Source of the DNA: an uncultured bacterium | GTDB lineage: Bacteria; Omnitrophota; Omnitrophia; Omnitrophales; Aquincolibacteriaceae | Assembly (NCBI GenBank): GCA_964434115.1 | Contig: CAYSSX010000011.1 | Coordinates: 3,605 to 67,604 of the forward strand | Direction: 5' to 3' | Length of the DNA: 64,000 nucleotides | Shown: positions 4,767 through 56,656 of the stretch, one piece after another | Position numbering within the stretch: the stretch's first letter is position 1 | Layout of the letters: the number at the start of each line of letters is the position of its first letter | Made by a program: the position numbers and the translations under genes | Notes under the pieces: model-generated | The model's input: only the letters and a program-made list of their open reading frames with translations | Told to the model about the DNA's origin: nothing | Database searches by the model: none

Positions 4767-4880
4767 CTTCGTTATAGACTTTTAAAAAGAGCGGCGATTA
4801 TAGCACACACGCCTTGCGTGTCAATGAGGGAGAAATGCTCTTTCTGCTTGGGTTTTAGGCTGCCGGGAATGTCTTGGGGC

Positions 4881-14151: not shown

Positions 14152-16931
<2,780 letters not shown>

Positions 16932-16974
16932 AGATCCAGTTTCTTAACCTCCAAAAAGAGGGAAGGTAAATAGT

Positions 16975-20845: not shown

Positions 20846-20932
20846 GGAGGAGTGGCAGAGCGGTCGAATGCGGCGGTCTTGAAAACCGTTAGAGTCGAAA
20901 GGCTCTCGTGGGTTCGAATCCTACCTCCTCCG
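20846..20932 (+). tRNA. tRNA-Ser (anticodon TGA), class II with a long variable arm
   Basis: Acceptor GGAGGAG/CTCCTCC, anticodon loop CT-TGA-AA, T-loop GGTTCGAATCC, 87 nt. CCA is not encoded. Confidence 0.85.
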
Positions 20933-20957
20933 AAATCATAATATACCTCCGTTTTTA

Positions 20958-21048
<91 letters not shown>

Positions 21049-38022: not shown

Positions 38023-38087
38023 AAAATAGAACCCTTCCAGAGGTTGTAGAGATCATCGGCATCAGGTAACCTTTCTATAGGAGGGGT

Positions 38088-38438: not shown

Positions 38439-38449
38439 GGAGGTCCGTT

Positions 38450-38563
38450 GTGGAAAACGCAGAGAAACAGGAAAAGCCCGAAAGCAATGGAAAGAAGAAG
38501 CTTTATAAGAAGCCGGCCATAAAAAAATATGAACGGCTCTATGAACCCGGAATCGGATCTTAA
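38450..38563 (+). CDS. Unannotated 37-aa basic peptide, a candidate precursor/substrate peptide of the adjacent modification system
   Basis: GTG at 38450, preceded by GGGAGG (38438-38443) with a 6-nt spacer. Translation: (M)ENAEKQEKPESNGKKKLYKKPAIKKYERLYEPGIGS, stop TAA at 38561-38563. It starts 12 nt after the PqqD stop. It is homologous to the peptide at 47852 through a shared Y-x-K-P-A-(I/L)-x-K motif. Confidence 0.6.
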   Translation: MENAEKQEKPESNGKKKLYKKPAIKKYERLYEPGIGS

Positions 38564-38598
38564 CACGCGCTTGAAAAACCCTCACTAATCCTGGGCTG

Positions 38599-40422: not shown

Positions 40423-40490
40423 AAGGTTAATTTTAAAGAGAAGCGAAAACTCAAAACGGGTACGCATCCCCGTCAGGAAAAATTTCCCAA

Positions 40491-41672
40491 ATGAACTCAG
40501 CAGATAAAAAAGAGCACTCTAAAGAAATACTGTTTATTCTCGAATGCCTTCAGTCGCTTATCCAAAACCGGGCGCCTGAGATAGACTCCCGGCGGATCAC
40601 CGGCCTCGACTGGAATCAGCTCCTCCGATTGGCCCGCGAGCAAAGGGTTCTGGGGCTTTTCGGGCATGTCCTCGAGAAGGGCGGGGCATTTCCTTTGGTT
40701 CCCGTGACGGTAAAAGAGGAAATCGAAAAAGGTGTTCATGAATACAACCAGGGCCTGCTGATCAAAAAGTGGCAATTTGGGTCCATTCACCGTTTATGCC
40801 GCGAGCAGAACCTCGAAATCATTCCTTATAAAGGCGCCGCCCTTGCGCTCACCGTTTTTAAAGACCTGCCTTTTCGCCGCATGAGCGATATTGATATTTT
40901 TATCCGTGAAAGCGATGCTGCGCGCATTTATCCGCTTTTTTTTAAGCAAGGCTTCGCAAGACTTGAAACGCCTTACCCTAACCGATGGCAGGCAGAGATT
41001 CTTCGGGGTGCTTATGCCGCCCCGTCAGGAAGAGAGTCCCTTTTTAAGCAAGGGTGGGACATTGATATTCATAGGCAAGCGAGATATCACATTGAAAAAG
41101 ATATCGTTTCGCTGGATATGCAGGACGTTTGGTCCAGAGCAAAGCCCAGGGCCACGGAGCTTGGAGAGGTCCTTTTTCTCGATGATATTGATCATACCCT
41201 GCTTTTGCTTTTTCACGCGATCGATCTTTTTGCCCCGCATTTCAGCCAGATTGTGGATACCGCCCTGCTGATGAAAAGCTCCGCGATTCGTAAAGAGGAT
41301 CTGATAGCAAGGCTCCCCGGAAACCTCGGCCCGGAGGCCAGTGCTTTTTTAGAAACCGCCAGCGATGCTATCGAAGAGTTTCTAGCGCCTCAGAAAAGGA
41401 GCGGAAATTTTTCAGAAGCAACGATCCGTTTTTTTGATTTGTTTTTTTACAAACGCAAGAGGACCTACGAAGAGCCGTTATCCAGCTCCGGCTGGAAGCG
41501 CCTTGCCAAAAGCCTAAAAGCCATACGGAGCGTTCGCGAGAAGGTGGTGTTTATCGCGGGATTTTTTGTGCCGGATCCAGAATACTACAAAAAGCAAGGC
41601 AAGAGCGGCCTCAGCAGTTACCTTCACCACTGGGGACAGCTGAGCTCGCGTATTTTGAAATCATTTAATTGA
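40491..41672 (+). CDS. Nucleotidyltransferase-family protein (PF14907-like 'uncharacterised nucleotidyltransferase')
   Basis: 393 aa. IPYKGAALALTVFKDLPFRRMSDIDIFI is the nucleotidyltransferase-fold G[SA]...D.D motif. This family is seen in lasso-peptide and other RiPP neighbourhoods. Confidence 0.55.
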   Translation: MNSADKKEHSKEILFILECLQSLIQNRAPEIDSRRITGLDWNQLLRLAREQRVLGLFGHVLEKGGAFPLVPVTVKEEIEKGVHEYNQGLLIKKWQFGSIHRLCREQNLEIIPYKGAALALTVFKDLPFRRMSDIDIFIRESDAARIYPLFFKQGFARLETPYPNRWQAEILRGAYAAPSGRESLFKQGWDIDIHRQARYHIEKDIVSLDMQDVWSRAKPRATELGEVLFLDDIDHTLLLLFHAIDLFAPHFSQIVDTALLMKSSAIRKEDLIARLPGNLGPEASAFLETASDAIEEFLAPQKRSGNFSEATIRFFDLFFYKRKRTYEEPLSSSGWKRLAKSLKAIRSVREKVVFIAGFFVPDPEYYKKQGKSGLSSYLHHWGQLSSRILKSFN

Positions 41673-41682
41673 GACCCGGTGG

Positions 41683-42624
41683 ATGATGCGTCAACAGCTG
41701 CATTTTTTGGATATTACAATTGAACTCACCGGGGCCGCCGATTCAAATTCGCGGACTCTGCTGAAAGAGCTTCAAGGGTATGGCTCAACAGCAATCCGCA
41801 AAGATGTCTCAGGAACACTGAGCATCAAAAAGGCCGCAAACTTCAGAATTCCTAAACAAGCCTGCCTGAAAGGCTTTTGGAGATCTTCGGGACTTCGGCA
41901 CTATGCCGAAACGACAACTCATTTTTGGGTTCAAGGAAAATCAGCGATTGTCAGTAATCTGCATACCCGCGGCGTTGAAATTCATTTGGGCGATAACCCT
42001 TCTGCCGAATTTATTGCCGCGGCTAGAAACGCGATCAAGTGGCTGATCATCAAGGCTGCGGAAAAATCAGGTTATGGATATGCCCATGCGGCAGCCGCTT
42101 ATTTCCGCGGGCGGAGTATTCTTCTGCCTGGAAATCCGGGCGCCGGAAAGTCCTCCTTTGTGATGCGCCTGATGAAAGCCGGAGCCGTGGTCCTTAACGA
42201 TGATGTAACCCTGATTCATCTGGGTTCTGGCCGTATGATCCCGCTGGCCCTGAACCTTCACGTTAAAGGGGATTTTTCTAAACGGTTCAATGTTTCGCCG
42301 CGCGAGCGCTGGGCATGGTTTCGCGATGAGGCGGTAAAAGAAGCCGAAAAGGTCAAAGGGGTGGATGTTATTTTATTTCCACAGGTATGGGCAGCGTCCG
42401 AGAGCCGTGTCAAAAAACTATCGCCCGAAGAAACGGAAATACGGCTGGATGGTATTTACCTGAAAGAGATGTCCTGGAACGCTTTTCCTGCTCCATCGCA
42501 AAGAATGAAATCAGCTCACCGGAAAATGATCAAGAATGCGGACAGCTATGTTTTTTACTGCGGAACACACGAAGCAAAAATCCAGAAGCGGCTGGAGAAT
42601 TTTTTGAAAAAATATGAAGAATAA
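41683..42624 (+). CDS. HPr-kinase-like (HprK-related) P-loop kinase
   Basis: YAHAAAAYFRGRSILLPGNPGAGKSSFVMRLMKAGAVVLNDDVTLI, i.e. P-loop followed by a DD motif as in the HprK C-terminal domain. Confidence 0.6.
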   Translation: MMRQQLHFLDITIELTGAADSNSRTLLKELQGYGSTAIRKDVSGTLSIKKAANFRIPKQACLKGFWRSSGLRHYAETTTHFWVQGKSAIVSNLHTRGVEIHLGDNPSAEFIAAARNAIKWLIIKAAEKSGYGYAHAAAAYFRGRSILLPGNPGAGKSSFVMRLMKAGAVVLNDDVTLIHLGSGRMIPLALNLHVKGDFSKRFNVSPRERWAWFRDEAVKEAEKVKGVDVILFPQVWAASESRVKKLSPEETEIRLDGIYLKEMSWNAFPAPSQRMKSAHRKMIKNADSYVFYCGTHEAKIQKRLENFLKKYEE

Positions 42625-43537
42625 TCAGCGTCCTTTTTTTGTTTTTCAAGGAAAGATGCGTGTTGAGGTCCTCTCAGACAGAGCTGCCGCCAGTCAGTTA
42701 AAACGGCACCAAGACGCCGGGCGGGAGGAGAGGACTTTGCTGGCCGGCCGCCTTAAAATCTATAAAGTGAGAAGGTTCACGCCGCTCAACCACCGGGCGC
42801 TGCGCGCTCACTGCAACGGTCAAACCCGCAGGGAAGAGTATGCAAAGTCCGGGACCCACACCTACTTGGCGCCCACTTTTCAAATCCGCCTCGACAAGCG
42901 GAAGAGAAGCTGCCGCGTCGAATACTTGAAATGGGACTCCCGCCTGCTTCATGAAGTCCGGCTCCTGATACGCTGGATTATGAAATCAGCGCATCTCGAT
43001 CAGGGGTGTGTTTATTTTCCGGGCATTCTGCTGGGCTCTGACGACGGTGGCGGGGTCGCTTTTACGGGGCAGCAGGAGTGTGGGATTTTGGATGCTTTGC
43101 CGCGCGTTTCAGCTTTTGGGAGGGGCCGGCCCGGCAGTTATGGTTTTATCATGAATCCGAAGTCAAAACAGATCACAGCGCTGCCTTTTCCGGGAGTCTG
43201 CAAATATGAGAGCTCCCGGGTCTATGCTGAGGCCTTGGAAAAAACAAAACAGAAGGAGGGGGAAAAGAGCCCCCGCTTCTCCAGGAGGATTGTTTTTGTC
43301 CAATCCTGGAACCGGCCGGACTCTCACCTGGGAAGTCTTTCCAGGCGTGAAGGAGTTCTAAAACTGGATGAGCTGAACCGGAGAGCTTACGAGTATTTTT
43401 TCCCCAGTCAAAGAGAGCGTCTTTTGGAGCGCTACCAAGGCATGCGGCAGCTCAGGTTTTTTCAGCTCAATCTCGGAACAGATTCCGTGAAAGCCGCAAC
43501 GCTGCTTTCACGCTTTCTGAGGGAAGGGAAAAAGTGA
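42614..43537 (+). CDS. Hypothetical protein
   Basis: 307-aa ORF translationally coupled to its neighbours (ATGA overlap). No motifs recognised. Confidence 0.4.
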   Translation: MKNNQRPFFVFQGKMRVEVLSDRAAASQLKRHQDAGREERTLLAGRLKIYKVRRFTPLNHRALRAHCNGQTRREEYAKSGTHTYLAPTFQIRLDKRKRSCRVEYLKWDSRLLHEVRLLIRWIMKSAHLDQGCVYFPGILLGSDDGGGVAFTGQQECGILDALPRVSAFGRGRPGSYGFIMNPKSKQITALPFPGVCKYESSRVYAEALEKTKQKEGEKSPRFSRRIVFVQSWNRPDSHLGSLSRREGVLKLDELNRRAYEYFFPSQRERLLERYQGMRQLRFFQLNLGTDSVKAATLLSRFLREGKK

Positions 43538-44565
43538 AAGAAACCGTTTTTTGTACTGTGGTTTCGCGAAGCTTTTTGCCTGGAGCGTTGGCGCTGTACC
43601 GATCCCTGGAAAAGCATTGCGTTGATTTGAGTTTTACAGCGCTTGTTATAGACATCCATCCGGCCGAGGCGCGCAAACTGTCCGTAAAACTGCCTTTTCA
43701 GATCCTGACTCCCGAAGCGCTTGATGCACCCGGCCTTCGCCGTCTCTGGAAATATTATTCTGTTTTTGAACTTTGCAATGTTCTACGGCCCTTTCTGATC
43801 CGGCATCTCTTGAAAAAAAAGAAGCCCAACCAAGTTATTTATCTCGACTCGGATATCTATGTAACCGGGCGTTTTGACTATATTGAGAAAAAGCTGAATC
43901 AGTACGTTTACGCCTTTACCCCCCACACGCTAAAACCTTATCCGCTGGATTCGTTCGTGCCAAACGACCTGTCTTTGCTGCACTACGGAATTTATAACAG
44001 CGGCTTTCAGGCCTATAGAAACCATCCGCAAAGCTTCAAGGTTCTTGAATGGCTGATGCCAAGGCTCATGCTTTATGGGTTCAATGATCCGCCCCGGTAT
44101 TACGTGGATCAAAAATTTCTTCCGCTGGCAGCAGCCAGTTTCCCGGAAGGTTTTTTTTGCGTGGATCATCCAGGCTATAACATTGCTTACTGGAACCTTC
44201 ACGAACGCAAAATTGAAATAAAAGCAGGCCGTTATTTTACCCAGGGCAGCCCGGCCGTTTTCTTTCATTTCAGCGGATACGATTTAAGACGCCCCGGGGA
44301 ATGGACTCAGCGGGGGAGAAAAAAAGATCCCAGCCAGCCCTCGGGGACAAGCGGGATTTCCCTGAGGAAGCCCGCAAAGCACGCGGTGCCCACGCTCGGA
44401 AAAGTCTTGGCGGAATACCGGGAACTCCTTAAGGGATGCTGCGAGGAATTGAAAGGGGAAAAGAAAGCGGAGCTGAAAAAGCAAACGAGAAATAGAAACA
44501 GGGCCAGGTTTTTTAAAGAGGAGTACCCAAAACTCCTCAAGCAAATAAATCTTTTAAAACGTTGA
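43534..44565 (+). CDS. Putative GT-A-fold nucleotide-sugar transferase (DxD motif)
   Basis: VIYLDSDIYVTGRFDYI DxD context, with its start overlapping the upstream stop. The family assignment is tentative. Confidence 0.4.
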   Translation: MKETVFCTVVSRSFLPGALALYRSLEKHCVDLSFTALVIDIHPAEARKLSVKLPFQILTPEALDAPGLRRLWKYYSVFELCNVLRPFLIRHLLKKKKPNQVIYLDSDIYVTGRFDYIEKKLNQYVYAFTPHTLKPYPLDSFVPNDLSLLHYGIYNSGFQAYRNHPQSFKVLEWLMPRLMLYGFNDPPRYYVDQKFLPLAAASFPEGFFCVDHPGYNIAYWNLHERKIEIKAGRYFTQGSPAVFFHFSGYDLRRPGEWTQRGRKKDPSQPSGTSGISLRKPAKHAVPTLGKVLAEYRELLKGCCEELKGEKKAELKKQTRNRNRARFFKEEYPKLLKQINLLKR

Positions 44566-45664
44566 GGTATTCCGCGTTCTTTTGTTCCACAAAAAAACGA
44601 GCTTTTTCAGACAGCCCTGAAGCCAGCGAATCGTCTTCCAGAACTGACAGAACATGTTTCGAAAACTCTTCAGCGTTCCGACCCACCAAAAAAGCGTCCG
44701 TGTCTTTTAGGCCTCTTGCCCCCAAAGGGGAAGTGACCAAGGGCATTCCAAAGCCAAGGGCCGTCCTATTTTTAGTGCTGATTCCTGTCGCAAAGACCTC
44801 GGCGGAAACAACGACCCTTGCAGATTCAAAAAAGGAATCGAGGGTTTCTTGATACCCCTCAAGGGTCAGGCTGGGGGCTTTTTCTTCGATTAGCTGGCAG
44901 ATAGTTCCCGCAACCGAAAGCCGGGCTTCCGGGCACTGGCTTTGAATCCGCGGCCAAATCTGATGAAAAAAGTATTTGAAATTGGCAAGTCCTACCTGGT
45001 TTGCCGAAGAAAAAAAGACAACATTGTTTTTATTCCTCGGTGAAAATTTATTTTTTACAGGGGTCCAAAGCCCGAGTTCCACAACCGGTCTTGCGGCCGC
45101 CTTTTTGAAATACTCGGCGTCATTTTTTTGGATCGCGAGCAAAAGGTCTGAACGGAGCAGCGCCTTTGCCTCTTCCTCGGGGGAAAAGGAATACCCGTCG
45201 GACAGGGGGATGTTATGCGCGAGAAGCTGCTCATTTCTGTTGGCGTGAACATCATGGGTGTCGAGAATTTTTAAAACCGGAAACGAAAAGTAGTCTAGAA
45301 GCCGAGAAATGGAGGCATACATCACGACCACAGCCTGCGGACGAACAGACTCGAAATGCGCACGAATCGGAGCCTCCAGCCCGTCATCAAACCAGTCATC
45401 GACCCTGCGGATATGGCTGAGACAAATTTTCCCGGAAGACCGCCTCATGTTTTCCCCCTCCGCGTAATCCAGCGAGGCAAAATTTCCCCATTCCTTTTTC
45501 ATTGCCGGCAAATGGTCATCCTTTGCCTGGCGCGAGGTTCGGAGATAGAGGAAGTGGACGTCGTGGCCAAGCTCACGGAGCTTTTGAGTCAGGAAAAAAA
45601 TGCGGGACCGATGACCCGCATTTTGCGGGTGTGTGGCGATGGGGGAGACAATGAGAATTCTCAT
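44537..45664 (-). CDS. GT4-like glycosyltransferase
   Basis: MRILIVSPIATHPQNAGHRSRIFFLTQKLRELGHDVHFLYL is the GT4 N-terminal domain pattern. There is also a C-terminal GT-B domain. Confidence 0.55.
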   Translation of the reverse strand: MRILIVSPIATHPQNAGHRSRIFFLTQKLRELGHDVHFLYLRTSRQAKDDHLPAMKKEWGNFASLDYAEGENMRRSSGKICLSHIRRVDDWFDDGLEAPIRAHFESVRPQAVVVMYASISRLLDYFSFPVLKILDTHDVHANRNEQLLAHNIPLSDGYSFSPEEEAKALLRSDLLLAIQKNDAEYFKKAAARPVVELGLWTPVKNKFSPRNKNNVVFFSSANQVGLANFKYFFHQIWPRIQSQCPEARLSVAGTICQLIEEKAPSLTLEGYQETLDSFFESARVVVSAEVFATGISTKNRTALGFGMPLVTSPLGARGLKDTDAFLVGRNAEEFSKHVLSVLEDDSLASGLSEKARFFVEQKNAEYLNVLKDLFA

Positions 45665-45713
45665 GGGCGGCTATGAAATCATTAAACCCGCCGAAGGGGC
45701 AAGTATTTTCATT

Positions 45714-46781
45714 TTAAATCGGCTCACCGGGCGAAGGAATGTTTTCTAAAAGCCCTTTTAAGGCACGCCGCTGAACAGCGCTCAAGCGCACCCCCTCAAA
45801 GATTTTTGCAGCACGCGCCAATTCAAAGTAACCTTCCTTGCTCTTTTGGGAAAAATTGAAACCGTTTCCCGTGCTGTACTTTACCGCAAGCATGGCGCGG
45901 AACGACTTTGGCTCCCGGTATTGTTTGTGGAGCGCGTTGGCATCAAAAAGGATCACGGTTCCTTTAGGTCCTACACAGTTTACAACCGGGTATTTTGACC
46001 GCACGTAAGCATCAGAATAGAGGGAATCGCTTAAACTCAAGGGAACCCTCCAGGGCCTGTGAGAGCCCTTCGCGATAAGCATGCGGACACTGCTTTCCGT
46101 GACGTCATTTAAAAAGACCAGCATCTTGAGGGTGTTAACGTTATCGCTATGCCATTCGGTTACGATTTCCTCTTCAGGGGGGGATGACGGAGCGCTTAAA
46201 GTGTTGACCACGGTAATCACCGGAAGATCCTGGACAAAGGGCTGATAGCCAAAAATTTGCCCGAGGGCCGAAAGAATCGTTTCATGGAGGGCTATTTTTG
46301 AAAAGGCTTCATCCAAAAGACTTAGGTAGCGAACCGTTAATTCTTTGACGGGTTGGTTTTTGTTCGGGACCGCAGAATAACGGTCGGCAAGTCCGTGAAT
46401 TTGATTTTGAAAATAGCCGGGCAGGATGACGAACCCATCGGATTTAAAGGAGTGTACCCAGGAGCTTATTTCTTGGTTTCGCTGAATATCAGAGGGAAGA
46501 TTTTCTGATAAGCGAAATGATTGCGGAAGGGGAAAAATCTGCCCGTGGGATAGTTTCAGCAGAAACCTTTCCGGGCGCAATAGGTTCTTTATGATAAGCA
46601 GTCCCGGGGAATCTGACCCGATGCGTTTTTCGCAGTAAAGATCCGGAGCGTTTTTTACAAGGCTGCGAGTCATCCAAGCCAGGAAGCCGCTGGTTAAACT
46701 CTTCCAGCCTCGCCGCCACAAGCGGGGCTGATGGTTAGCGATGAACCGGTACGTGTTTGCCATTTTTTTACTAAGCCGCAT
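45714..46781 (-). CDS. Putative PhyH-family Fe(II)/2-oxoglutarate-dependent dioxygenase
   Basis: 355 aa. A TEWHSDNV (H-x-D) motif and a later His-containing segment. The assignment is tentative. Confidence 0.35.
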   Translation of the reverse strand: MRLSKKMANTYRFIANHQPRLWRRGWKSLTSGFLAWMTRSLVKNAPDLYCEKRIGSDSPGLLIIKNLLRPERFLLKLSHGQIFPLPQSFRLSENLPSDIQRNQEISSWVHSFKSDGFVILPGYFQNQIHGLADRYSAVPNKNQPVKELTVRYLSLLDEAFSKIALHETILSALGQIFGYQPFVQDLPVITVVNTLSAPSSPPEEEIVTEWHSDNVNTLKMLVFLNDVTESSVRMLIAKGSHRPWRVPLSLSDSLYSDAYVRSKYPVVNCVGPKGTVILFDANALHKQYREPKSFRAMLAVKYSTGNGFNFSQKSKEGYFELARAAKIFEGVRLSAVQRRALKGLLENIPSPGEPI

Positions 46782-46798
46782 GATGGCCGCTCTTACTC

Positions 46799-47755
46799 TT
46801 AAAGGATAAAGTCATAAGCGCCCAGCCACTGGAAGACTTTGGCGCCAAACCCGCTGTAAAATCGAAATAATCCGTCGCCTCTTCCGGGCGATGAGGAGTC
46901 GGCAGCTGGACGCTGAACACCCCAAAGATCCAAAACGGAGCAGCCCGTCTTTTTTCCGAACAGCATGGCCTGCCACATCAAAGCATAGTTGACCATCGCG
47001 TTTTTATAAACCCGGCTTGAGGCGCCATGAGGAAAGTATAGCCGGTCACCCGCCTTGAAAAGCATCATGACCGCCGCCGTTTCTCCCCGGTAGGTCGCTT
47101 TAAGCAGGTGAAGCATTCCTGTGGGTTTCATGATCTTCCAAAACAAACGCAGGGTTTCTGGTGAATGAGGGTAGGCAATCCCCGCACGAACCACAGTGAC
47201 GTTGAAAAAAAGATGCAGAAACTCCTCAAAGCATTGGTCTGAGTTATCCCGGGTTACCGCGACACCCTTTCTTTCCGCGAGCCGGATATTGTAGCGGGTC
47301 TTAGAGTGCATTTTTCCAAGCAAAGCTGGATCCGGCCCTTCCAGCGAAATAAGCAGTGTGTGCTGAGGATAAACACCTCGCGAATTCAAGCCCCCCTGGG
47401 AATGAATTTTTCTTTCGATCGATCGCTTTTCGGCTTTATCAGTTGAAGTCATAGGGTAAAGCCATCCGTAGCAGGGCTCGATTTTGAGCGAAATACAGGC
47501 GTGCTTTTTCGCGATCGTCTTTAGATAGGAAATCTGTCTGCGGCCGGGAAGCGGAGCTCTTGGAACATAGGCGAGGTTGTGATTCCGGACCACGCTTTTT
47601 TGGATGATAGCCTGGACCCCGAAGCTGGGCCCGGGATCTTCTTTCAAGCGGTGCCGAATGACTTTGAACCCCAGCCTGTGACAGTAACGGCCCCATTCGT
47701 AGGTTTGGAGGGGATGAGAAACACCTTTATTGAATTGGGCCGGGGTCACGTTCAT
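46799..47755 (-). CDS. FemAB-family (FemXAB-like, GNAT-fold) aminoacyl/peptidyl transferase homologue
   Basis: 318 aa. HLLKATYRGETAAVMMLFKAGDRLYFPHGASS...KNAMVNYALMWQAMLFGKKTGCSVLDLWGV matches the FemABX C-terminal lobe pattern (...yyl.Gas....k....yll.weai.wake.G....D..G). Confidence 0.55.
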   Translation of the reverse strand: MNVTPAQFNKGVSHPLQTYEWGRYCHRLGFKVIRHRLKEDPGPSFGVQAIIQKSVVRNHNLAYVPRAPLPGRRQISYLKTIAKKHACISLKIEPCYGWLYPMTSTDKAEKRSIERKIHSQGGLNSRGVYPQHTLLISLEGPDPALLGKMHSKTRYNIRLAERKGVAVTRDNSDQCFEEFLHLFFNVTVVRAGIAYPHSPETLRLFWKIMKPTGMLHLLKATYRGETAAVMMLFKAGDRLYFPHGASSRVYKNAMVNYALMWQAMLFGKKTGCSVLDLWGVQRPAADSSSPGRGDGLFRFYSGFGAKVFQWLGAYDFIL

Positions 47756-47851
47756 TTATCGGTCTCTATTGGAGATTGTTAAGAACTATAAGATTGATCA
47801 AGAGGCATCCGCGATGTAAGCTTTTCATAGTAATCAAAAAAGGACTAAAAA

Positions 47852-47998
47852 GTGGCAAAAAAAAAATCACAATCTCCCAAGCCTAAGACTAAGCTAGCAC
47901 CGCCGAAAGGCAGGCAAAAGAGAAAACCCTATCAAAAGCCTGCGCTTGAAAAACATAGCGAAGTTCAGTTGTGGGCGTTTGGGACCATGGGCGGGTGA
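47852..47998 (+). CDS. Unannotated 48-aa basic peptide, paralogue of the 38450 peptide and candidate precursor/substrate peptide
   Basis: GTG at 47852 with AAAGGA ~8 nt upstream. Translation: (M)AKKKSQSPKPKTKLAPPKGRQKRKPYQKPALEKHSEVQLWAFGTMGG, stop TGA at 47996-47998. RKPYQKPALEKHSEV aligns with KKLYKKPAIKKYERL of the first peptide at the protein level, but with different codons. Confidence 0.6.
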   Translation: MAKKKSQSPKPKTKLAPPKGRQKRKPYQKPALEKHSEVQLWAFGTMGG

Positions 47999-48090
47999 AG
48001 CCAGGCCCGGCAGGCTTAAAACGGATGCAATTTTAAAACGAAATCACGGGCGAATGCGGATATTGATGCAGAATCTCTTAATGGGGCAGC

Positions 48091-48375
48091 ATGTATAAGA
48101 TCGATCAAAAGGCCGTTGTCTGGAAAAAAACGGAATCCGAAGTGGTGCTCCTTAATCTAAGCACCGGACACTACTACACACTCAATGCGGCAGGCCTTGT
48201 GTTGTGGGACGGAGTTCTTAAAAAGCTTTCACCCGAGAAGATCGCTCGAAAACTGGAATCAGAGTTCGAGGTGGAATACAAAACCGCCTTTAAGGACACG
48301 CTCGAATGTCTTGATCAGCTGACCCAAGAGGGAATCATCACGAGACCGCCTACGCCTTCAACTAAAAAGAAATAA
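48091..48375 (+). CDS. PqqD-family protein (second RRE-like paralogue)
   Basis: 94 aa. MYKIDQKAVVWKKTESEVVLLNLSTGHYYTLNAAGLVLWDGVL...LESEFEVEYKTAFKDTLECLDQLTQEGII is the PqqD pattern. It starts 92 nt after the peptide gene. Confidence 0.8.
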   Translation: MYKIDQKAVVWKKTESEVVLLNLSTGHYYTLNAAGLVLWDGVLKKLSPEKIARKLESEFEVEYKTAFKDTLECLDQLTQEGIITRPPTPSTKKK

Positions 48376-48393
48376 CCCGGCCGAATTCTCCCC

Positions 48394-49479
48394 ATGGTGG
48401 ATATCGTCATCGTCACTTATAATGCGCGGTCCGAGCTCATGAAATGCCTTGAGTCGGTCCGGCGTTATACGCCCGCTTCAATGTATAAATTATATGTTGT
48501 TAATAATGCCAGCAGCGACGGCACCCGCCAATATCTTGATCAAACCCGCCTTGTGAATGGTCAGTTTTTTCATCTTCCCCGGAACCTTGGGTTCTCGGGT
48601 GCAGCCAATTGGATAATCCCAAAGCTAAAATCGGCAGACGTAGTTTTTTTGGATGACGACGCCAGGGCCACCCCAGGCTGGCTTTCCGGGCTTGTCCGTT
48701 CGGTGAAAAAATCAAAAAAAACCGGCATGGTGGGCTGCAAGATTATTTATCCAGACAAAAAAATTTTTTCGTGCGAGGTTCGGTTTGGGCCGAGAAGAAT
48801 CTTATTTTTTAAAGACAGGGACCTGGGGCAGGCCGACTACGTTAAAGAAGTGGATGCTCTGGCGGGTGCCTGCTTTCTTGTCCCGCGAAAGATTTTGAAA
48901 AAAATAGGCCCCTTTGACGAAAGTTTCTTTCCCTGTCAGGGAGAAGACTGGGATTATTGTCTTCGAATCCGGAAAGCCGGCTATAAAATTATCTACAATG
49001 GCAAAGTAAGTATTATTCACAGTAATCTTTTCCGTGCGGGCGGCGAAAAAGTAAATAAAGAAAACAAAACCCGGTTCTATGAAAAGTGGAATGCGTATCT
49101 TGCTAAGCACTTTCCGCGCAAAGACAGCCACTTTGCAGACAGACTTATGTCGAAAGCGATTGCCGCGCTTGAGGCCGGCGACAGCGAAAGGGCCTTAAAG
49201 ATCTCCGGCAAGCTGGCCAAGAGCCGCCCCGAACTTGTTGAGCTGTGGGTTCCCGCGCTTGCCTATATAAGACTTCAAAATTTCAAGAAAGCCTTACCGA
49301 AGTTAAAAGAAATTATAAAAAGGAATCCGGATAACTATTCCGCACGGAGTTACCTTACCCTCTGTTTGCGCAGCCTGGGGATGAAGGGCGAAGCGGAGGC
49401 GTACACGGAGAAGATGCTTGCCTGCGTCACAAAGAACATAGACAAAAAAAGAGCCGCCGTTTCAAGGGGCAAACCTTGA
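48394..49479 (+). CDS. GT2 glycosyltransferase with a C-terminal TPR-like helical domain (SunS-like architecture)
   Basis: N-terminus: MVDIVIVTYNARSELMKCLESV...NNASSDGT...VVFLDDDA (GT-A fold, DxD). C-terminal ~110 aa have TPR-like repeats (AIAALEAGDSERALKISGKLAKSRPELVELW...LQNFKKALPKLKEIIKRNPDNYSARSYL). Confidence 0.7.
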   Translation: MVDIVIVTYNARSELMKCLESVRRYTPASMYKLYVVNNASSDGTRQYLDQTRLVNGQFFHLPRNLGFSGAANWIIPKLKSADVVFLDDDARATPGWLSGLVRSVKKSKKTGMVGCKIIYPDKKIFSCEVRFGPRRILFFKDRDLGQADYVKEVDALAGACFLVPRKILKKIGPFDESFFPCQGEDWDYCLRIRKAGYKIIYNGKVSIIHSNLFRAGGEKVNKENKTRFYEKWNAYLAKHFPRKDSHFADRLMSKAIAALEAGDSERALKISGKLAKSRPELVELWVPALAYIRLQNFKKALPKLKEIIKRNPDNYSARSYLTLCLRSLGMKGEAEAYTEKMLACVTKNIDKKRAAVSRGKP

Positions 49480-50537
49480 GCATACAACCGCTGAAGATAG
49501 AGCCTGTTTTCATTATGAGCTCAGAGAGATCAGGCAGCAATTTGCTCCGCGTGCTGCTTTCAAATCATCCGAACATTCATTCGGCGCCGGCCCCGCATTT
49601 TTTGAAGATTTTCCACACCATAATCTCATCTTATGGAGACCTGTCGGATCGAGGGAACGTCGAAACCCTTTTTTTTGACATGGCCAATTTTGTCAGTGAC
49701 GAGGGGACCGCGTGGAACACGAAGTTCGACTTCAAAACGCTCTATGAAGAGTTCAGGCCGAAAAGCTTTCTGGACTGCTTCCACCTTTTTTACACGGTAA
49801 ACACCCGCGAAAGCGGGAAGCAGAGATTTGTTGTGAAAGAAAACAACCTTTTCGATTTTGCTTTCCAGCTTGTTCATTATTATGGATCGCCTAAGTTTAT
49901 ATACTTGTACCGGGACCCGAGAGACTATGCCGCATCCTGGATGCGGCTGTCCCACAATACCTTAACGCCCTATGCGGCCGCGGTAAGATGGGCGTACGAA
50001 CAGGAAAAGTGCCTTGAGCTGATGGATGGATTCGGTCTAAAGGCTTTTCCAGTTAAATACGAGGAGTTGATTACAGATACGGCTCAGGTGATGAGTGGTG
50101 TGCTCCGGCATCTTGAGGAGCCGGATACCGATCTTTGCTGCCAGGTAGACACCCGAAAAACAGCGTGCTTTGCCTGGAACGAGAGCTGGGCCAACATCGC
50201 GCAGCCGGTCCTCAAAAACAACAGCGGCCGATACAGGTTTTTTTTGAAGAAAAAAGATATCCTGATCATTGAGAGTGCGGCTAAAGCGCCGATGCTGAAA
50301 CTGGGGTACGCGTTAGAAACCCGGGCTGACTGGAAACCTTCCATGGCGTTCCGGTGGACAGAGAAGGTGCGCGGCAGAATAAAGCGCTTTCAGGCTTCAG
50401 TGAATCGAAACAGAACAAAGGATTTCTTAGACATGAAAAAAAATCTGGTGGAAAGCATCCGCGCGCGGCAGCGTGGTTTGGCTGACAGCAGCGCCTCCCG
50501 CGGCGGGACTCGAAATCCTGGCGGAGGGAAGGCGTGA
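49476..50537 (+). CDS. Sulfotransferase-family protein
   Basis: PVFIMSSERSGSNLLRVLL is a 5'-PSB-like motif (P.F.I.G..RSGTT) and RDPRDYAASWMR is 3'-PB-like. The start overlaps the upstream stop. Confidence 0.65.
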   Translation: MSIQPLKIEPVFIMSSERSGSNLLRVLLSNHPNIHSAPAPHFLKIFHTIISSYGDLSDRGNVETLFFDMANFVSDEGTAWNTKFDFKTLYEEFRPKSFLDCFHLFYTVNTRESGKQRFVVKENNLFDFAFQLVHYYGSPKFIYLYRDPRDYAASWMRLSHNTLTPYAAAVRWAYEQEKCLELMDGFGLKAFPVKYEELITDTAQVMSGVLRHLEEPDTDLCCQVDTRKTACFAWNESWANIAQPVLKNNSGRYRFFLKKKDILIIESAAKAPMLKLGYALETRADWKPSMAFRWTEKVRGRIKRFQASVNRNRTKDFLDMKKNLVESIRARQRGLADSSASRGGTRNPGGGKA

Positions 50538-51517
50538 TTAAAAAAATATTCACGACAGCTTACCTGCGTATTGAACTTCAAACAAACTCCCGCCAGGTTG
50601 CAGCTCTGTTAAGCCGGTCGATGAGTTTTGGCGTCCGGCCGGAGAAAAGCGCCGTGAAAATTTCCTTCTTTATTACGCACGTCCCCAAATCAAGTTTTGG
50701 AGATGGCGATTATTCCTACCACCGCTTGCGCAGCAGGGAAGGGATCGCCACTCGCCTTCATCATGGATGTTTGGCCTCAGTGTCGGTTGATGAGAAAAGA
50801 ATGAGGGTTACGGGTGCGGTTTATGATTTGAAAGAAAAACACCATCCGCGTCTCGCTCAAACACTTTTTATCGACCCCCTTATTCAGCTGCTCAGCCTTC
50901 ATGGCTACCAGTTTCTCCACTGTGCACTGATCGAGAAGGGCGGCGAATGCGTTCTTGTATCGGGGCCGTCTGGAAGCGGTAAGAGCACCCTGTCTTTAGC
51001 CCTTGCCATGCACGGAGCAAAGCTGCTGACCGACGACAAGTGCCTTTTTAGATTTAACCCGGAAGGGGGCTGTACATTTTTGGCGATGCGGCAAAGCATT
51101 GGTGTTCAGCCGCATCTCTGGAGAAAATTTTCAGCGATAAGAAAATTTCCTTCAGAAATCGATTGTGACGGCAAGCGAAGGCGTATCCCGGCAGACTCTT
51201 TTGGGAAACAGTCCGCCGATCAATTTAAGTTTGCCCCCAAGGCGATTCTTTTCCCGAAGTTCAGAAAAGGCGGGAAGGTTAGAATGAAAAGCCTTTCCGC
51301 CAAAGAAGCACTTAAACGTCTGTGGGCCGACAAAAGCAATGCCTGTAATGCGGGGCGAAACAAGAAAAGTCTTAGCGAAGCCCTTTTCAGCCTTCATCAG
51401 CTGACAAAACAAACCCCGGCTTACCAGGTTTTTTATAACGATCCAGAGGTTGGAAAAATCGGAAGCCTTGTGGAGCCTTTGTTTGCGGGCCGCGGCCAGT
51501 TTCATGAATCCCGGTAA
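50534..51517 (+). CDS. HPr-kinase-like (HprK-related) P-loop kinase, the third in the locus
   Basis: FLHCALIEKGGECVLVSGPSGSGKSTLSLALAMHGAKLLTDDKCLF. GTG start overlapping the sulfotransferase stop. Confidence 0.6.
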   Translation: MIKKIFTTAYLRIELQTNSRQVAALLSRSMSFGVRPEKSAVKISFFITHVPKSSFGDGDYSYHRLRSREGIATRLHHGCLASVSVDEKRMRVTGAVYDLKEKHHPRLAQTLFIDPLIQLLSLHGYQFLHCALIEKGGECVLVSGPSGSGKSTLSLALAMHGAKLLTDDKCLFRFNPEGGCTFLAMRQSIGVQPHLWRKFSAIRKFPSEIDCDGKRRRIPADSFGKQSADQFKFAPKAILFPKFRKGGKVRMKSLSAKEALKRLWADKSNACNAGRNKKSLSEALFSLHQLTKQTPAYQVFYNDPEVGKIGSLVEPLFAGRGQFHESR

Positions 51518-52484
51518 AACCTTCTTTTCAGGCCGGGCCGATTCCCCGGAACTCTGGCGAAAATTTATTGACCCCGCGGATTGGTCCGAAGCGGTAAGGC
51601 AATTCCCCAGCGCCCCCTGGAAGCTTTATTTGATGCCCGCAGGGCAGTACACCCCCAAAGAGTGGAATCATTTTAAGCGGGCTGTGCGCTGGGTCTGGAA
51701 AAAGGCCGCGGAGAACCGGAGCCAGAGGCGTGAAAAACTTTCGGTACGGGATCTATTAAAAATCAATGCCCTTGTTATCTTTGGGGATTCCACCCTTTGG
51801 CGGAAAACCTTGCGGAATAACCGGCCGATTTTCAATTACCGGACGACTGAGGAAATCCTGCGGGTTTATGAGAGCGGTTCATGCCTTTACCGCAATGGTG
51901 ATGGACTTCCCTTACGCATTGATGGATTTTGGCCCGCCGAAGCAGCCTCCCTGGATTTTTTTACCTGCTGCAGGGCGCTTGCAGCGACGCCTTTTGATAA
52001 AAACCCCAAACAATGGGAAAAGGTTCTGCGGCATTTCAAAACCTTGCTTCATCAGAAAGTCTCAGGACGCGGTGAAAAATGGCAGGTCTACTTTACGACG
52101 AGGCGCAAAGACCTGATTAAGCAGCTGGAAATTATTTTGGACTGGTATCAGGCGCAAGCGAATCGTCTTCTTGCCGCCCAGGAAAGCGCAGGCTTTCACC
52201 CTCGTGAGGTCCTTGAACTGGCAGTCAAAATGCAGCGCTACGTTGACATGACCCAGTTCTGTATGGATGGCTCCGGCAGAACAAGCAAACTGGTTCAGGA
52301 GTATATTTTTCTGCGTTTTGGGTACTTCCCCCCAAAGCCCGTTTATTATGAGGCGTACCGGCGAGGCTGGGAAAATGGCACTTACCTCCCATTAAAGAAA
52401 GCGATCCAGATGCAGCGGCGAGGCTGGACGGCTGTTCGGCTAAACAGTCCGGGCAAGCGCCCAGCCAAAGGCCGCTCGGATTGA
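51504..52484 (+). CDS. Hypothetical protein (the start is probably the ATG at 51504, not 51450)
   Basis: ~326-aa ORF, last gene of the co-directional block. No confident motif. Confidence 0.4.
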   Translation: MNPGKTFFSGRADSPELWRKFIDPADWSEAVRQFPSAPWKLYLMPAGQYTPKEWNHFKRAVRWVWKKAAENRSQRREKLSVRDLLKINALVIFGDSTLWRKTLRNNRPIFNYRTTEEILRVYESGSCLYRNGDGLPLRIDGFWPAEAASLDFFTCCRALAATPFDKNPKQWEKVLRHFKTLLHQKVSGRGEKWQVYFTTRRKDLIKQLEIILDWYQAQANRLLAAQESAGFHPREVLELAVKMQRYVDMTQFCMDGSGRTSKLVQEYIFLRFGYFPPKPVYYEAYRRGWENGTYLPLKKAIQMQRRGWTAVRLNSPGKRPAKGRSD

Positions 52485-53957: not shown

Positions 53958-54896
53958 GTGACCATGACCCCAGCCATAGCCATACAAAACCTGACCAAAT
54001 TTTATAAACAGTTCAAAGCCCTCGACGGTGTTTCTTTTGAAGTTGAACCGGGAGCCTTCTTCGGCTTTTTGGGCCCCAACGGTGCGGGCAAAACAACCAC
54101 CATTGGCGTTTTGACCGGGCTTGCCAACTTTCAGACCGGGGATGTCCGAGTTTTCGGCCATGACGTGAGGTCCGGGTACCGGGAAACGCGGCGTCTCATT
54201 GGACTGGTTCCGCAGGAGTTTAATTTTGATCCGTTTCTTTCCGCGGAGCAGATTTTGACTTTTGAGGGCGGATATTTCGGCCTGCCCAGGGCAGAAGCGA
54301 AAAAGCGCGCGCATGAACTCCTGAAGGTCTTTGACCTTTGGGAAAAGCGGACCGGGAACTATAAGAAACTTTCCGGGGGGATGAAGCGCCGGCTTTTAAT
54401 TGCCCGGGCCCTTATGCACAGTCCTAAAATCCTGATCCTGGATGAGCCCACGGCCGGGGTGGATCTCGAACTTCGTCATCATCTCTGGGATTTTCTGAGG
54501 AAGCTCAACGAAAAAGGGACCACCATTTTTTTGACAACACATTATATCGAAGAAGCGGAAAAACTTTGCAGCCGGATCGGCGTTATCCATCAAGGGAGCA
54601 TGGTTGCTCTTGATAACACCGAAGTGCTGATTCAAAAAATGGCAGGCGATCAGGTGGAGCTTTATTTTAAACGGCCCCTCCAGGCTCTCCCGGAGCTTCT
54701 AAAAAAACTCCCTGTTTTTCTTGAGGAAAACGGAAGCCGGCTTCGCTTTGAAGAGAAACATCAAATCGTTTCCGCCGTGCTGAAAATTCTTCATGACGAA
54801 AAGCTTGAAGTGGATCGGCTGGACGTGCGGAGGCCGACCTTGGAAGACGCCTTCCTGAAGCTTGTCGCAAAGGGAAACGGAGCGATTAAAGTATGA
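53958..54896 (+). CDS. ABC transporter ATP-binding protein (ABC-2 exporter type)
   Basis: Walker A GPNGAGKTT, signature LSGGMKRRL, Walker B ILILDEPT. Confidence 0.85.
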   Translation: MTMTPAIAIQNLTKFYKQFKALDGVSFEVEPGAFFGFLGPNGAGKTTTIGVLTGLANFQTGDVRVFGHDVRSGYRETRRLIGLVPQEFNFDPFLSAEQILTFEGGYFGLPRAEAKKRAHELLKVFDLWEKRTGNYKKLSGGMKRRLLIARALMHSPKILILDEPTAGVDLELRHHLWDFLRKLNEKGTTIFLTTHYIEEAEKLCSRIGVIHQGSMVALDNTEVLIQKMAGDQVELYFKRPLQALPELLKKLPVFLEENGSRLRFEEKHQIVSAVLKILHDEKLEVDRLDVRRPTLEDAFLKLVAKGNGAIKV

Positions 54897-55657
54897 AGAT
54901 CAGCGTGGGTTTTAAAACCCTTGTGGAGCGGGAAGTTTTTCGCTTTTTCTCCGTCTTCAGCCAGACGATTTTCCCGCCCGTGGTCTCAAGCTTTCTCTAT
55001 ATTTTTATTTTTGGGTACTCTTTGGGAGCTCGGATCGAAACGGTTCACGGGTTCCCATATCTTGTTTTCCTGGTTCCCGGGCTTGTCATGATGTACGTCA
55101 TTGAAGGGGCCTACGCGAACACCTCCAGCTCGCTGTTTATTTCCAGATGGGCAAATAATATCGAGGAACTCCTGGTGACGCCGCTTTCTTATTTAGAAAT
55201 GGTTCTTGCGATTTTAATCGGCGGGCTGGCCCGAAGCCTTGTCACGGCCTTTGGAGTTTACCTCGTGTCCTTGTGTTTTGTCAGATTCGAGATAGCGCAT
55301 CCGGGCCTGGTGCTTTTTTTTATGATTTTTGTTTCGCTAAGTTTTTCTGCTGCGGGTATGATTGTGGCGCTGTTTGCCGAGGAGTTTGAACACCTGACGA
55401 TTGCGACAACCTTTGTAATCACACCACTTGTTTTTCTGGGAGGTGTTTTTCACTCCTTGGACATGGTGCCTCAAGCGCTCCGCGGCGTGACCATTTTTAA
55501 TCCGATGTTTTACATGGTCAACGGCCTGCGCTATGGAATACTCGGAACCTCAGATGTTCCGGTGGGGCTGTGTGCGGCGGTCGTGACCGTGCTTTTTTTC
55601 GCCTTATTCTTTTTCACCGTATTTCTTTTTAAGACAGGTTATAAACTGAGAAAATAG
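54893..55657 (+). CDS. ABC-2 family transporter permease
   Basis: 254 aa, six hydrophobic segments, overlapping the ATPase stop. Confidence 0.75.
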   Translation: MKISVGFKTLVEREVFRFFSVFSQTIFPPVVSSFLYIFIFGYSLGARIETVHGFPYLVFLVPGLVMMYVIEGAYANTSSSLFISRWANNIEELLVTPLSYLEMVLAILIGGLARSLVTAFGVYLVSLCFVRFEIAHPGLVLFFMIFVSLSFSAAGMIVALFAEEFEHLTIATTFVITPLVFLGGVFHSLDMVPQALRGVTIFNPMFYMVNGLRYGILGTSDVPVGLCAAVVTVLFFALFFFTVFLFKTGYKLRK

Positions 55658-55672: not shown

Positions 55673-56656
55673 ATGCTGACCACCTATCTCTACCGTAAAG
55701 AGCAGCCTTTGAAAAAAGAGGCCAGCCGTGCGGAAATGTTCGCGGCCCTCAAAGACCCGGAAAGCCTTTTGTGGGTCGACCTGGAAGACCCCACGGATTT
55801 TGAGACGGAGCTGCTGGTGGAGATTTTTAATTTTCATCCGCTCGCGATCGAAGACTGCCTTTGCGATCATTCCGAGCCCAAAATGGATGACTATGAAGAG
55901 CACTTGTTTATTGTTGTTCATGCCGTGAACATCGAGAAGGATGAAGAAAAAGAACTGGATCAGCTGATGAGCCGCGAGCTGAATATTTTCTTCGGAAAAA
56001 ATTATATTGTGACACTGCACAAAACCCCGATTAAGACCATGATGCAGGTCCGCGCCGCCATTGAAAAAAGACCGGAGAAGATGCTGGGCCATGGCTCGGA
56101 CCTTCTCCTCCATGAGATTCTGGACCGCCTGGTCGATAACTATCAGCCCGCGCTTGATCACTTTGACGTGAAGATTGATAAATTGGAAGAAGACCTGTTC
56201 AGTAACGACTCACGGGATTATCTCGCTACGATCATGCAGGCAAAGCGCGATGTTTTTAACCTCCGCAGGCTTATTTCTCCCCAGAGGGATCTCCTTAATA
56301 ACCTTACACGCATCCACACGGATTTTATTACCCCAAACCACATGATGTATTTCCGCGATGTGTATGACCACCTTCTCCGTGTCTACGGACTTACGGAGAG
56401 CTTCCATGAATCCCTTTCGAACATTCTGCAGGTTTACTTTTCCTATTCGTCGAACAAACTGAATGAGATCATTAAACATATGACCGTCATGGCCACCTTG
56501 ACGATGCCGTCAGTGATTGTGGCCAGTATTTACGGAATGAATTTTGAACACATGCCGGAACTTCACTGGCGATACGGGTATCATTTCTCAATATTTCTTT
56601 CGCTGTTCATTTCCGCGTCCCTGCTGCTTTGGATGAAAATTAAAAAATGGATCTGA
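55673..56656 (+). CDS. corA: Magnesium/cobalt transporter CorA
   Basis: 327 aa. C-terminal two TM segments with the YGMNFEHMPEL GMN motif. Confidence 0.85.
   Translation: MLTTYLYRKEQPLKKEASRAEMFAALKDPESLLWVDLEDPTDFETELLVEIFNFHPLAIEDCLCDHSEPKMDDYEEHLFIVVHAVNIEKDEEKELDQLMSRELNIFFGKNYIVTLHKTPIKTMMQVRAAIEKRPEKMLGHGSDLLLHEILDRLVDNYQPALDHFDVKIDKLEEDLFSNDSRDYLATIMQAKRDVFNLRRLISPQRDLLNNLTRIHTDFITPNHMMYFRDVYDHLLRVYGLTESFHESLSNILQVYFSYSSNKLNEIIKHMTVMATLTMPSVIVASIYGMNFEHMPELHWRYGYHFSIFLSLFISASLLLWMKIKKWI

Follow-up and report, generated by a model that had tools for sequence, protein, structure and literature searches.

A short uncalled gene beside a PqqD-type RRE probably encodes the precursor of a linear, LPP-like modified peptide in an uncultured Omnitrophota bacterium

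The DNA stretch analysed here, referred to as the window, covers 64,000 nucleotides of contig CAYSSX010000011.1 (positions 3,605 to 67,604) from an uncultured bacterium of the Omnitrophota. Within it, a 48-codon open reading frame (ORF) encodes a short peptide, peptide B, next to a gene for a PqqD-type protein. Peptide B is probably the translated precursor of a linear, non-lasso, ribosomally synthesised and post-translationally modified peptide (RiPP), which depends on a RiPP recognition element (RRE), resembles the recently reported linear polyphosphorylated peptides (LPPs) and is modified on Thr45. A paralogous pair, peptide A and PqqD1, is present in the same 15-kb cluster, and the system is a separate LPP-like variant with almost no core. 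The four genes concerned are listed below.

47852-47998, plus strand: peptide B, 48 amino acids, GTG start; predicted precursor, from the ORF and its Shine-Dalgarno (SD) sequence, orthologues, the ratio of non-synonymous to synonymous change (dN/dS), hidden Markov model (HMM) tests and a table of the C-terminal register
48091-48375, plus strand: PqqD2, discrete RRE and predicted partner of peptide B (PF05402, E 1.7e-13)
38450-38563, plus strand: peptide A, 37-amino-acid paralogue with GTG start; Y19-K-K-P22-A-I24 ... G-I-G-S37; the protein P0154, a called gene, is identical
38175-38438, plus strand: PqqD1, RRE paired with peptide A (PF05402, E 4e-16)

The coordinates, GTG start and translation of the peptide B ORF agree exactly with an initial annotation of the window made from the sequence. 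The N-terminus of the peptide is basic and variable; after it come the RRE-docking motif Y27-Q-K-P30-A-L32 and then EKHSEVQLWAFG-T45-MGG. The GTG is its sole workable start, because the frame is closed by a stop two codons before it, and no further candidate follows except a TTG at codon 42. An SD-like AAGGA is found 8 nt before it.

The gene was initially described as unannotated. Indeed, there is no gene record with the same product, and the gene sets called on the identical contigs L001 and L002 do not include it. At the related locus L003, a wrong-frame 44-amino-acid ORF (4503-4637) was called in preference to the overlapping peptide B orthologue. No B-type peptide occurs among 5.8 billion predicted proteins, against at least six loci which encode one. 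Peptide B has no match among the chain sequences of the PDB, and neither peptide matches an NCBIfam model. As a separate observation, residues 1-25 of the PqqD homologue P0004 (KNTATYSCGPLERWGADK) look as if the end of a peptide B gene had been translated in a shifted frame.

Relatives were sought through the neighbouring PqqD genes. A word-indexed protein search with PqqD2 returned only itself and one relative, so an exhaustive profile search was needed, which gathered 13,790 representatives at E<=1e-3. From genomes and metagenomes, 30 loci were picked solely by PqqD similarity, in a scan seeded with a 9-sequence PqqD alignment, the 41-sequence version being too diverse. Homologous loci do carry such an ORF: with the window, there are six independent B-type loci, and in the other five the peptide gene adjoins the PqqD2 orthologue. 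Two of these were picked via unk2, a gene of the same cluster unrelated to PqqD, and they likewise contain peptides of the family. The relatives with a name belong to metagenome-assembled genomes (MAGs) of Bdellovibrionales or Bdellovibrionota, besides one ‘uncultured bacterium’. The orthologues end as follows.

L003: ...KKKPYQKPVLEKHSEVQLWAFGTMGG
L005: ...KRKPYRKPVLEKHSEVQLWAFGTMGG
L006, Bdellovibrionales MAG: ...KQKYVKPALEKHGDVHLWAFGTLGG
L038/L039, locus picked via unk2: ...KKKYQKPLLEKHSDTQLWAFGTMGG
L040, locus picked via unk2: ...RKPYLKPTLEKHSDTNLWAFGTLGG

The peptide B ORF is a genuine protein-coding gene with constraint on its C-terminal half. This follows from frame-specific purifying selection, the loss of similarity past the stop codon and the conservation of start and SD signals among orthologues. 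In a gap-free comparison of the window, L003 and L005, the last 23 codons hold 8-14.5 synonymous against 1-2.5 non-synonymous differences (pN 0.02-0.05, pS 0.56-0.97). For the neighbouring PqqD2 gene, dN is approximately 0.19. Read in the other two frames, the changes in the same DNA are mostly non-synonymous. The N-terminal 25 codons evolve quickly (dN 0.38-0.54) with their basic character kept, and DNA similarity drops sharply directly past the stop codon. The start is GTG in all four B-type genes checked, and three of the four have an SD-like sequence.

The same comparison bears on the notion of a chance ORF, or of a regulatory upstream ORF whose peptide sequence is irrelevant. The gene is short, lies in the 5′ region of an operon, starts with GTG and is uncalled by gene finders, all of which suits that notion. 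The substitution pattern refutes it through strong selection specific to one frame. The amino-acid motif is also kept across loci whose PqqD shares 32-70% identity with PqqD2, and paralogous peptides are found downstream of their PqqD or fused to it, which leaves this explanation with a negligible probability. No attenuator is proposed, as the 92-nt spacer between peptide B and PqqD2 folds no better than its shuffles (z = +1.9). An Rfam scan of the window returned four tRNAs and nothing else.

The homology of the two peptides, proposed from their alignment, was upheld. Their local score is 51 (BLOSUM62) against 25 +/- 5 for shuffled controls (p ~4e-4 to 1e-3). For the HMM searches, six-frame translations of the 30 loci and the window were used, amounting to 8365 stop-to-stop segments and 499,421 residues. 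An HMM built from A-type peptides of other loci, with no B-type member, ranks peptide B of the window as its top non-A match (E 3.8e-4). In the reverse search, the best non-B match of a B-only HMM is an A-type peptide (E 4.4e-3). When the two window peptides alone make up the HMM, it picks out segments beside the PqqD of L003, L005, L006, L009, L023, L025 (two copies) and L027, with E from 7e-17 to 3e-5, and no further segment of the window falls below E=2. Each peptide does sit beside a PqqD paralogue, as first noted: A is downstream of PqqD1 by 11 nt, and B is 92 nt upstream of PqqD2. PqqD1 and PqqD2 are 38% identical. A GGAGG is placed 6 nt upstream of peptide A. The listed ORF of PqqD1 begins at TTG 38088, but the ATG at 38175 agrees better with its orthologues.

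Two of the initial arguments stand in part. The codons quoted for the shared segment (ccg gcc ata and cct gcg ctt) are correct for the two peptides, and the selection at protein level which they were taken to indicate is real. The divergence of A and B within one genome is nevertheless weak evidence for it, the strong evidence coming from the orthologues. The tails were described as variable cores behind a conserved recognition motif. The motif is confirmed below, but conservation within each type is highest in the tail, whereas the variation lies in the N-terminus. The A and B tails also align, with Gly at Y+17 and Ser/Thr at Y+18 when counted from the leader tyrosine.

The LPPs are RiPPs described by Popov et al. 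(Nat Commun 2026, PMC13381572), with the lppA-K-B-S-D-N cluster of Paenibacillus alginolyticus as the example. Their core set consists of the signal-peptidase-like LppS, the RRE LppB, the HprK-like LppK, the nucleoside triphosphate (NTP) transferase LppN and an MsbA-like exporter; the clusters have no cyclase and are located within polysaccharide loci (PMC13381572). The precursors of 35-200 amino acids carry the leader YxxPxVLxHQxIxFETxxS, are cut after T-1 and become polyphosphorylated on Ser+3 (PMC13381572). LPPs were described as restricted to Bacillota (PMC13381572). The supplementary table of that study contains, from many phyla, homologues of the signal peptidase that go with ‘other’ RREs, Cys variants included, which were left unanalysed there (PMC13381572).

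Peptides A and B share several features with these precursors. Both carry YxxPx[LI], so that the shared segment does match the chaperone-recognition motif of lasso and LPP leaders, as initially suggested. The leader register is common to both systems (Y0, P3, aliphatic 5, His/Tyr 8, aliphatic 11 and hydroxyl +18), and the precursor adjoins a discrete PqqD-type RRE. As with LPPs, the window cluster has no macrolactam cyclase and lies amid polysaccharide genes. HprK-like kinases (HPrK2, HPrK1 and a fusion of a family 2 glycosyltransferase (GT2) to an HPr-kinase-like domain) are present, as is a PF14907 NTP transferase in the A half.

Members of the peptide B family always adjoin a PqqD-type RRE which keeps the leader-holding residues of solved RREs. 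PqqD1 and PqqD2 match the PDB sequences of the leader-bound RREs TbiB1 (5v1u), PbaB1 (9x90) and TfuB1 (6jx3). LppB (9x8z) matches PqqD1 and the family profile, with no match to PqqD2 alone at E<=1. In the crystal structure of LppB, D70 hydrogen-bonds the leader Tyr-16 and N33 fixes the kink at the Pro (PMC13381572). Asp69 of PqqD2 is invariant in the 41-sequence family alignment and aligns with D70 of LppB and the corresponding Asp of TbiB1 and TfuB1, and Asn32 aligns with N33. As a side observation, P0009, P0025 and P0060 (~390-400 amino acids) are among the closest relatives of PqqD1 and PqqD2 and contain three tandem PqqD-like stretches; others carry two.

Three loci from two lineages encode the RRE and the peptide as one protein, in which the peptide continues the reading frame past the RRE C-terminus.

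L009 4591-4977: ...EEIPYSRPCLVKHERLYELGIGT*
L035 11413-11811 (= L036 8958-9356): ...KKPYTVPTIKKFDDILQWGFGS*
L041 9413-9805: ...KKPYATPSVKKFDDILQWGFGS*

All fusions end in G-[I/F]-G-[S/T] at Y+18, and their tails are intermediate between the A-type (..YEPGIGS) and B-type (..QLWAFGT) ends. Each is from single MAG or metagenome contigs, and as sequences they support a direct interplay of RRE and peptide.

The permanent linkage in L009, L035 and L041 would also suit a leader-only adaptor, that is, a peptide which binds and stabilises PqqD2 and switches on the enzymes for other targets such as polysaccharide, without being a substrate itself. The protease homologue of two fusion loci (L035 and L041) lacks its catalytic residues, and the clusters lie amid polysaccharide genes. 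It has also been reported that LppB is insoluble without its peptide (PMC13381572). This role is unlikely, as the best-conserved part of the peptide lies beyond the RRE motif and ends in an invariant Gly-Ser/Thr/Tyr, as expected for a substrate whose end enters an active site. Kinases of the HPr-kinase type are moreover proven to act on such peptides (PMC8498205, PMC13381572).

The C-terminal register bears on the modification site. In 18 of 18 A-type, B-type and fused peptides, Y+17 is Gly and Y+18 is Ser or Thr, once Tyr, and MAFFT places these residues in one column unaided. The Y+18 position is Thr45 in peptide B and Ser37 in peptide A, the latter being the C-terminus at once. It is followed by no residue (A-type and fusions), by one, or by three (B-type, [M/L]GG). 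The peptides are therefore nearly ‘leader-only’, with a very short end that is predicted to be modified. Counted from the LPP-equivalent cleavage position, 3 residues remain in A and 6 in B.

In LppA, the mapped polyphospho-Ser3 is situated at Y+18 (PMC13381572). In linear precursors, the C-terminal Ser is the residue that HPr-kinase homologues of the paeninodin type phosphorylate, and the nucleotidyltransferase of pseudomycoidin puts hexoses on the Ser phosphate (PMC8498205). By analogy with the LppA serine and the paeninodin-type C-terminal serine, Thr45 of peptide B and Ser37 of peptide A are pointed to as the modified residues. The invariant Thr of peptide B is probably phosphorylated or glycosylated.

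Phosphorylated and glycosylated lasso systems share part of this logic. The clusters of paeninodin (PadeK) and pseudomycoidin (PsmK/PsmN) have a [Y/W]xxPxL motif bound by a B1 RRE, and sulfotransferase genes are found in some clusters (PMC8498205). A-type peptides end in such a C-terminal Ser/Thr, and a B1-type RRE with a YxxPxL leader is present in the window. For the two PqqD proteins, the highest scores come from lasso B1 models and structures; in NCBIfam these are the models of lasso PqqD chaperones, whose cut-offs are not reached. Peptide B is nonetheless most improbable as a canonical lasso precursor, a candidate refuted because the defining enzymes and a core are lacking. A Pfam scan of the large ORFs of the window returned no Asn_synthase cyclase and no transglutaminase-like B2 protease (two ORFs of ~825 amino acids at 14457-19461 were outside the scan), and the gene-dense cluster at 37.4-52.5 kb leaves no room for them. 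Only five residues (GTMGG) lie past the canonical cleavage site, with no Asp/Glu acceptor. With cyclase, B2 protease and lasso core all absent, unlike in the paeninodin and pseudomycoidin clusters, the product must stay linear.

Lasso-like genes were observed at two related loci. In L041, the linear cluster directly adjoins (3551-5657) another PqqD gene and one of the Asn_synthase type that resembles a lasso cyclase gene, an arrangement which echoes the co-localisation of LPP and lasso genes reported for Bacillota. In a Nitrospiraceae MAG (L012 7206-7394), a lasso-like precursor candidate (MEALKENYSQPILIKQASLRDVTATGSHSRHNNNWD...) lies ~400 nt upstream of a PqqD gene.

Small-molecule pathways offer a different comparison. 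Those of pyrroloquinoline quinone (PQQ, from PqqA) and mycofactocin (from MftA, with the glycosyltransferase MftF) depend on a radical S-adenosylmethionine (SAM) enzyme next to the RRE. They share with the window a very short peptide, a PqqD-type domain and the fact that only the last residues matter, and a GT2 enzyme acts late in the mycofactocin pathway. Peptides A and B could similarly be scaffolds, as in PQQ, mycofactocin and PEARL systems, whose last residues are modified and cut off as a tri- to hexapeptide or an amino-acid derivative. The 3 or 6 residues left past the cleavage position fit such a fate, a protease homologue adjoins every A-type peptide, FemAB-like and dioxygenase genes are kept with B, and the GT2 proteins match the mycofactocin glycosyltransferase model weakly. 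On the other side, the cluster (37462-52484) encodes no cross-linking enzyme, radical SAM or otherwise, and the residues at the position of the FET box, by which LppS recognises its substrate, are not conserved. The scaffold role is thus given a low probability, similar to that of the adaptor. The nearest radical SAM genes are RlmN-like (56647-57708, ~4 kb off) and B12-binding (59446-61059, ~7 kb off), and the PQQ and mycofactocin NCBIfam models score far under cut-off for window proteins.

The HPr-rel-A, SynChlorMet (Scm) and GeoRSP cassettes of Haft (TIGR04352/04353, TIGR04248/04249, TIGR04302) also combine a PqqD-family chaperone with an HPr-kinase-related P-loop protein. Among the loci gathered here, the more distant L010, L017, L020-L022 and L024 have related YxKPxL peptides, described below. 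Against the HPr-rel-A models TIGR04352/TIGR04353, HPrK2 reaches 56.8 bits (cut-off 200) and PqqD1 20.3 (cut-off 35), with no match for PqqD2. The SynChlorMet and GeoRSP models likewise place the window proteins well under their curated cut-offs. We know of no published precursor assignment for any of the three cassettes.

The two peptide/RRE pairs belong to a cluster of ~15 kb (37462-52484), fully occupied by the genes listed above and the following.

37462-38022, minus strand: S24/S26 archaeal-type signal-peptidase-like protease, candidate leader peptidase and LppS counterpart (TIGR02228, E 4e-10, below cut-off)
38599-40422, plus strand: GT2 glycosyltransferase fused to an HPr-kinase-like domain; also after A-type peptides in L023 and L025
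40491-41672, plus strand: NTP_transf_5 nucleotidyltransferase (PF14907, E 8e-30), LppN/PsmN counterpart, in the A half
41683-42624, plus strand: HPrK1, second HPr-kinase-like P-loop protein
42614-43537, plus strand: unknown 307-amino-acid protein, probable tailoring or polysaccharide gene between the two peptide/RRE pairs
43534-44565, plus strand: family 8 glycosyltransferase-like (GT8-like), probable tailoring or polysaccharide gene
44537-45664, minus strand: family 1 glycosyltransferase (GT1), probable tailoring or polysaccharide gene
45714-46781, minus strand: PhyH-like Fe(II)/2-oxoglutarate dioxygenase; with B-type peptides in the window, L003, L005 and L006
46799-47755, minus strand: FemAB/GNAT-like transferase, divergent from peptide B; in all six B-type loci
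48394-49479, plus strand: GT2 glycosyltransferase with C-terminal TPR; adjoins PqqD2 in L003 and L005 too
49515-50537, plus strand: sulfotransferase (Sulfotransfer_3)
50534-51517, plus strand: HPrK2, HPr-kinase-like P-loop kinase (ScmC/HprK_rel_A-like), candidate Thr45 kinase
51504-52484, plus strand: unk2, with a DGSGR motif and a predicted Fic/Fido fold

The A half is syntenic among relatives, with protease, RRE and peptide together in five of five loci. The GT2-HPrK fusion is 46-53% identical to its counterparts directly after the A-type peptides of L023 and L025, the two A-type contigs long enough to show it, while the contig of L009 ends in the start of a GT2. The fusion suggests, as a gene architecture, that phosphorylation and glycosylation are coupled. 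The P-loops of HPrK1 and HPrK2 are intact. A recognisable HPrK-like gene is present in five of the six B-type loci; the ORFs beside PqqD in L038/39 have no Pfam match. The smallest B-type locus, L006, has FemAB-like, PhyH-like, HPrK-like and peptide/PqqD genes and a GT4.

In the window protease, Cys32 replaces the nucleophilic Ser, with His70 and Asp89 retained. It was compared with the following orthologues.

L009 4073-4558
L023 382-960
L025 5271-5849
L037 4968-5441
L040 6148-6633
L035 10947-11429
L041 8926-9435

Three states are found: Cys with His; Ser with His (L037, and also LppS); and Gly with Asn or Arg, in which both catalytic residues are gone (L040, L035 and L041). The inactivated types of L035 and L041 are from loci with an RRE-peptide fusion.

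Fic/Fido-fold enzymes put phospho-linked groups or sugars on Ser, Thr or Tyr hydroxyls. The unk2 protein has no Pfam match. The best matches to its AlphaFold model (pLDDT 87) are AnkX (E 2e-5), AvrB and FICD, and its motif QFCMDGSGRTSK resembles the Fic motif. Its homologues number only 17, and all five with fetched contexts sit in PqqD clusters. A paralogous relationship of unk1 and unk2 was rejected on comparison.

No MsbA-like exporter is found in the window, just ABC-2-type transporters at 29574-31901 and 53958-55657. MsbA-like ABC genes occur in the related loci L037 and L038. In a side observation, L037 (13850-16363) has an NTP_transf_5 domain fused to an MsbA-like ABC_membrane/ABC_tran exporter, and the locus also contains a PqqD gene, a 35-amino-acid peptide, an S24 protease and unk2. 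Beyond the last gene of the cluster there is a tRNA at 52716. The window includes the chromosomal replication-origin region at 983-21996 (parAB, gidA, yidC, dnaA, dnaN and serS, with two tRNAs at 20846-21048), so the peptide cluster lies ~25 kb from dnaA.

A third peptide type was observed in tandem arrays of 2-4 short genes, with a leader YxKPxLx[RK][HY]xKLT... and most members ending in LGC[TS]R[FSVY] or a near variant. The arrays are on the strand opposite PqqD.

L010 10489-11010
L017 9959-10401
L020 3556-4076
L021 8924-9355
L022 3429-4234
L024 8987-9939

L022 and L024 also contain a 346-amino-acid ORF with a Cys-rich C-terminus, putatively SPASM-like by its appearance.

For peptide B as an LPP-like precursor, the following sequence of events may be proposed. 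PqqD2 would bind Y27, P30 and L32 as an added beta-strand and offer the C-terminal segment to the cluster enzymes. HPrK2 would then phosphorylate Thr45, as occurs in LPPs and paeninodin-type lasso peptides. The Fic-fold and GT2-TPR proteins, together with the sulfotransferase and the A-cluster NTP transferase, could subsequently lengthen the phosphate, or substitute for it, with phospho-linked or glycosyl groups, and the PhyH-like dioxygenase and the FemAB-like transferase would make further changes. The basic N-terminal part may be removed, for example by the Cys-variant protease at 37462-38022. Three forms of the end product are conceivable: the entire peptide, one trimmed at its N-terminus, or a very small piece from the C-terminus.

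A number of points weigh against this reading of peptide B. An HMM of nine published LPP leaders gives peptide B an E of 1.5, with just KKpYxxPxxxxH aligning, and the peptide has no FET box, which LppS requires. LppK failed to phosphorylate an S3T variant (PMC13381572), and B-type peptides always have Thr here. In unk2, Gln stands in place of the catalytic His of the Fic motif, and the template modelling (TM) scores to Fic/Fido folds are modest (just 0.4-0.5). The B-type sets of L003, L005 and L006 have no protease of their own, nor does one lie beside peptide B in the window, and L006 has no NTP transferase. Neither a promoter nor a terminator was detected near the ORF by simple scans. A remainder of 3-6 residues past the LPP-equivalent cleavage point is without precedent, so the whole peptide may be the real product.

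Other differences separate the cluster from the LPPs. The named relatives of the cluster are from Bdellovibrionales/Bdellovibrionota MAGs, compared with the Bacillota of the LPPs, and a ‘core’ of 3-6 residues contrasts with 18-45 or more. The window protease has a Cys where LppS has its nucleophilic Ser. PhyH-like, FemAB-like, Fic-fold, GT2-TPR and sulfotransferase genes are extra in the B-type set. PqqD1 and PqqD2 reach 42 and 32 bits against paeninodin B1 proteins and at most 29 and 26 against eight published LPP RREs, a comparison of scores alone which leans against the LppB clade; among the PDB sequences matched by the two, TbiB1 ranks above LppB. Membership is not claimed, owing to the non-significant leader HMM, the missing FET box, RREs nearer to lasso B1 proteins, the Cys protease, the lack of an MsbA-like exporter and the differences in gene set. 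Judged from sequence, the cluster would work like an LPP system yet be separate from it, not a member of the LPP clade.

A more speculative proposal, to which a low probability is given, is that these near leader-only peptides are ribosomal primers or anchors for a phosphate-linked, sulfated glycan, giving a peptide-tethered surface polymer. The RRE would hold the peptide while its terminal Ser/Thr is phosphorylated. Onto this phosphate the NTP transferase, the Fic-fold enzyme, the glycosyltransferases and the sulfotransferase would then add further groups.

The first description of LPPs dates from 2026. The B-type genes expose a blind spot of annotation, having been missed by gene finders. 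The natural RRE-peptide fusions and the Cys-variant and inactivated proteases are ready material on the co-evolution of RRE, leader and peptidase. The precursors are reduced to a docking motif and one invariant hydroxyl residue, and for this reason the modification site and the minimal substrate are easily tested. LPP-like logic, with a lasso-type leader, an RRE, an HPr-kinase-like enzyme and no cyclase, is now seen outside Bacillota. If the peptides do prime a glycan, RiPP machinery would be linked to capsule or exopolysaccharide assembly outside that phylum.

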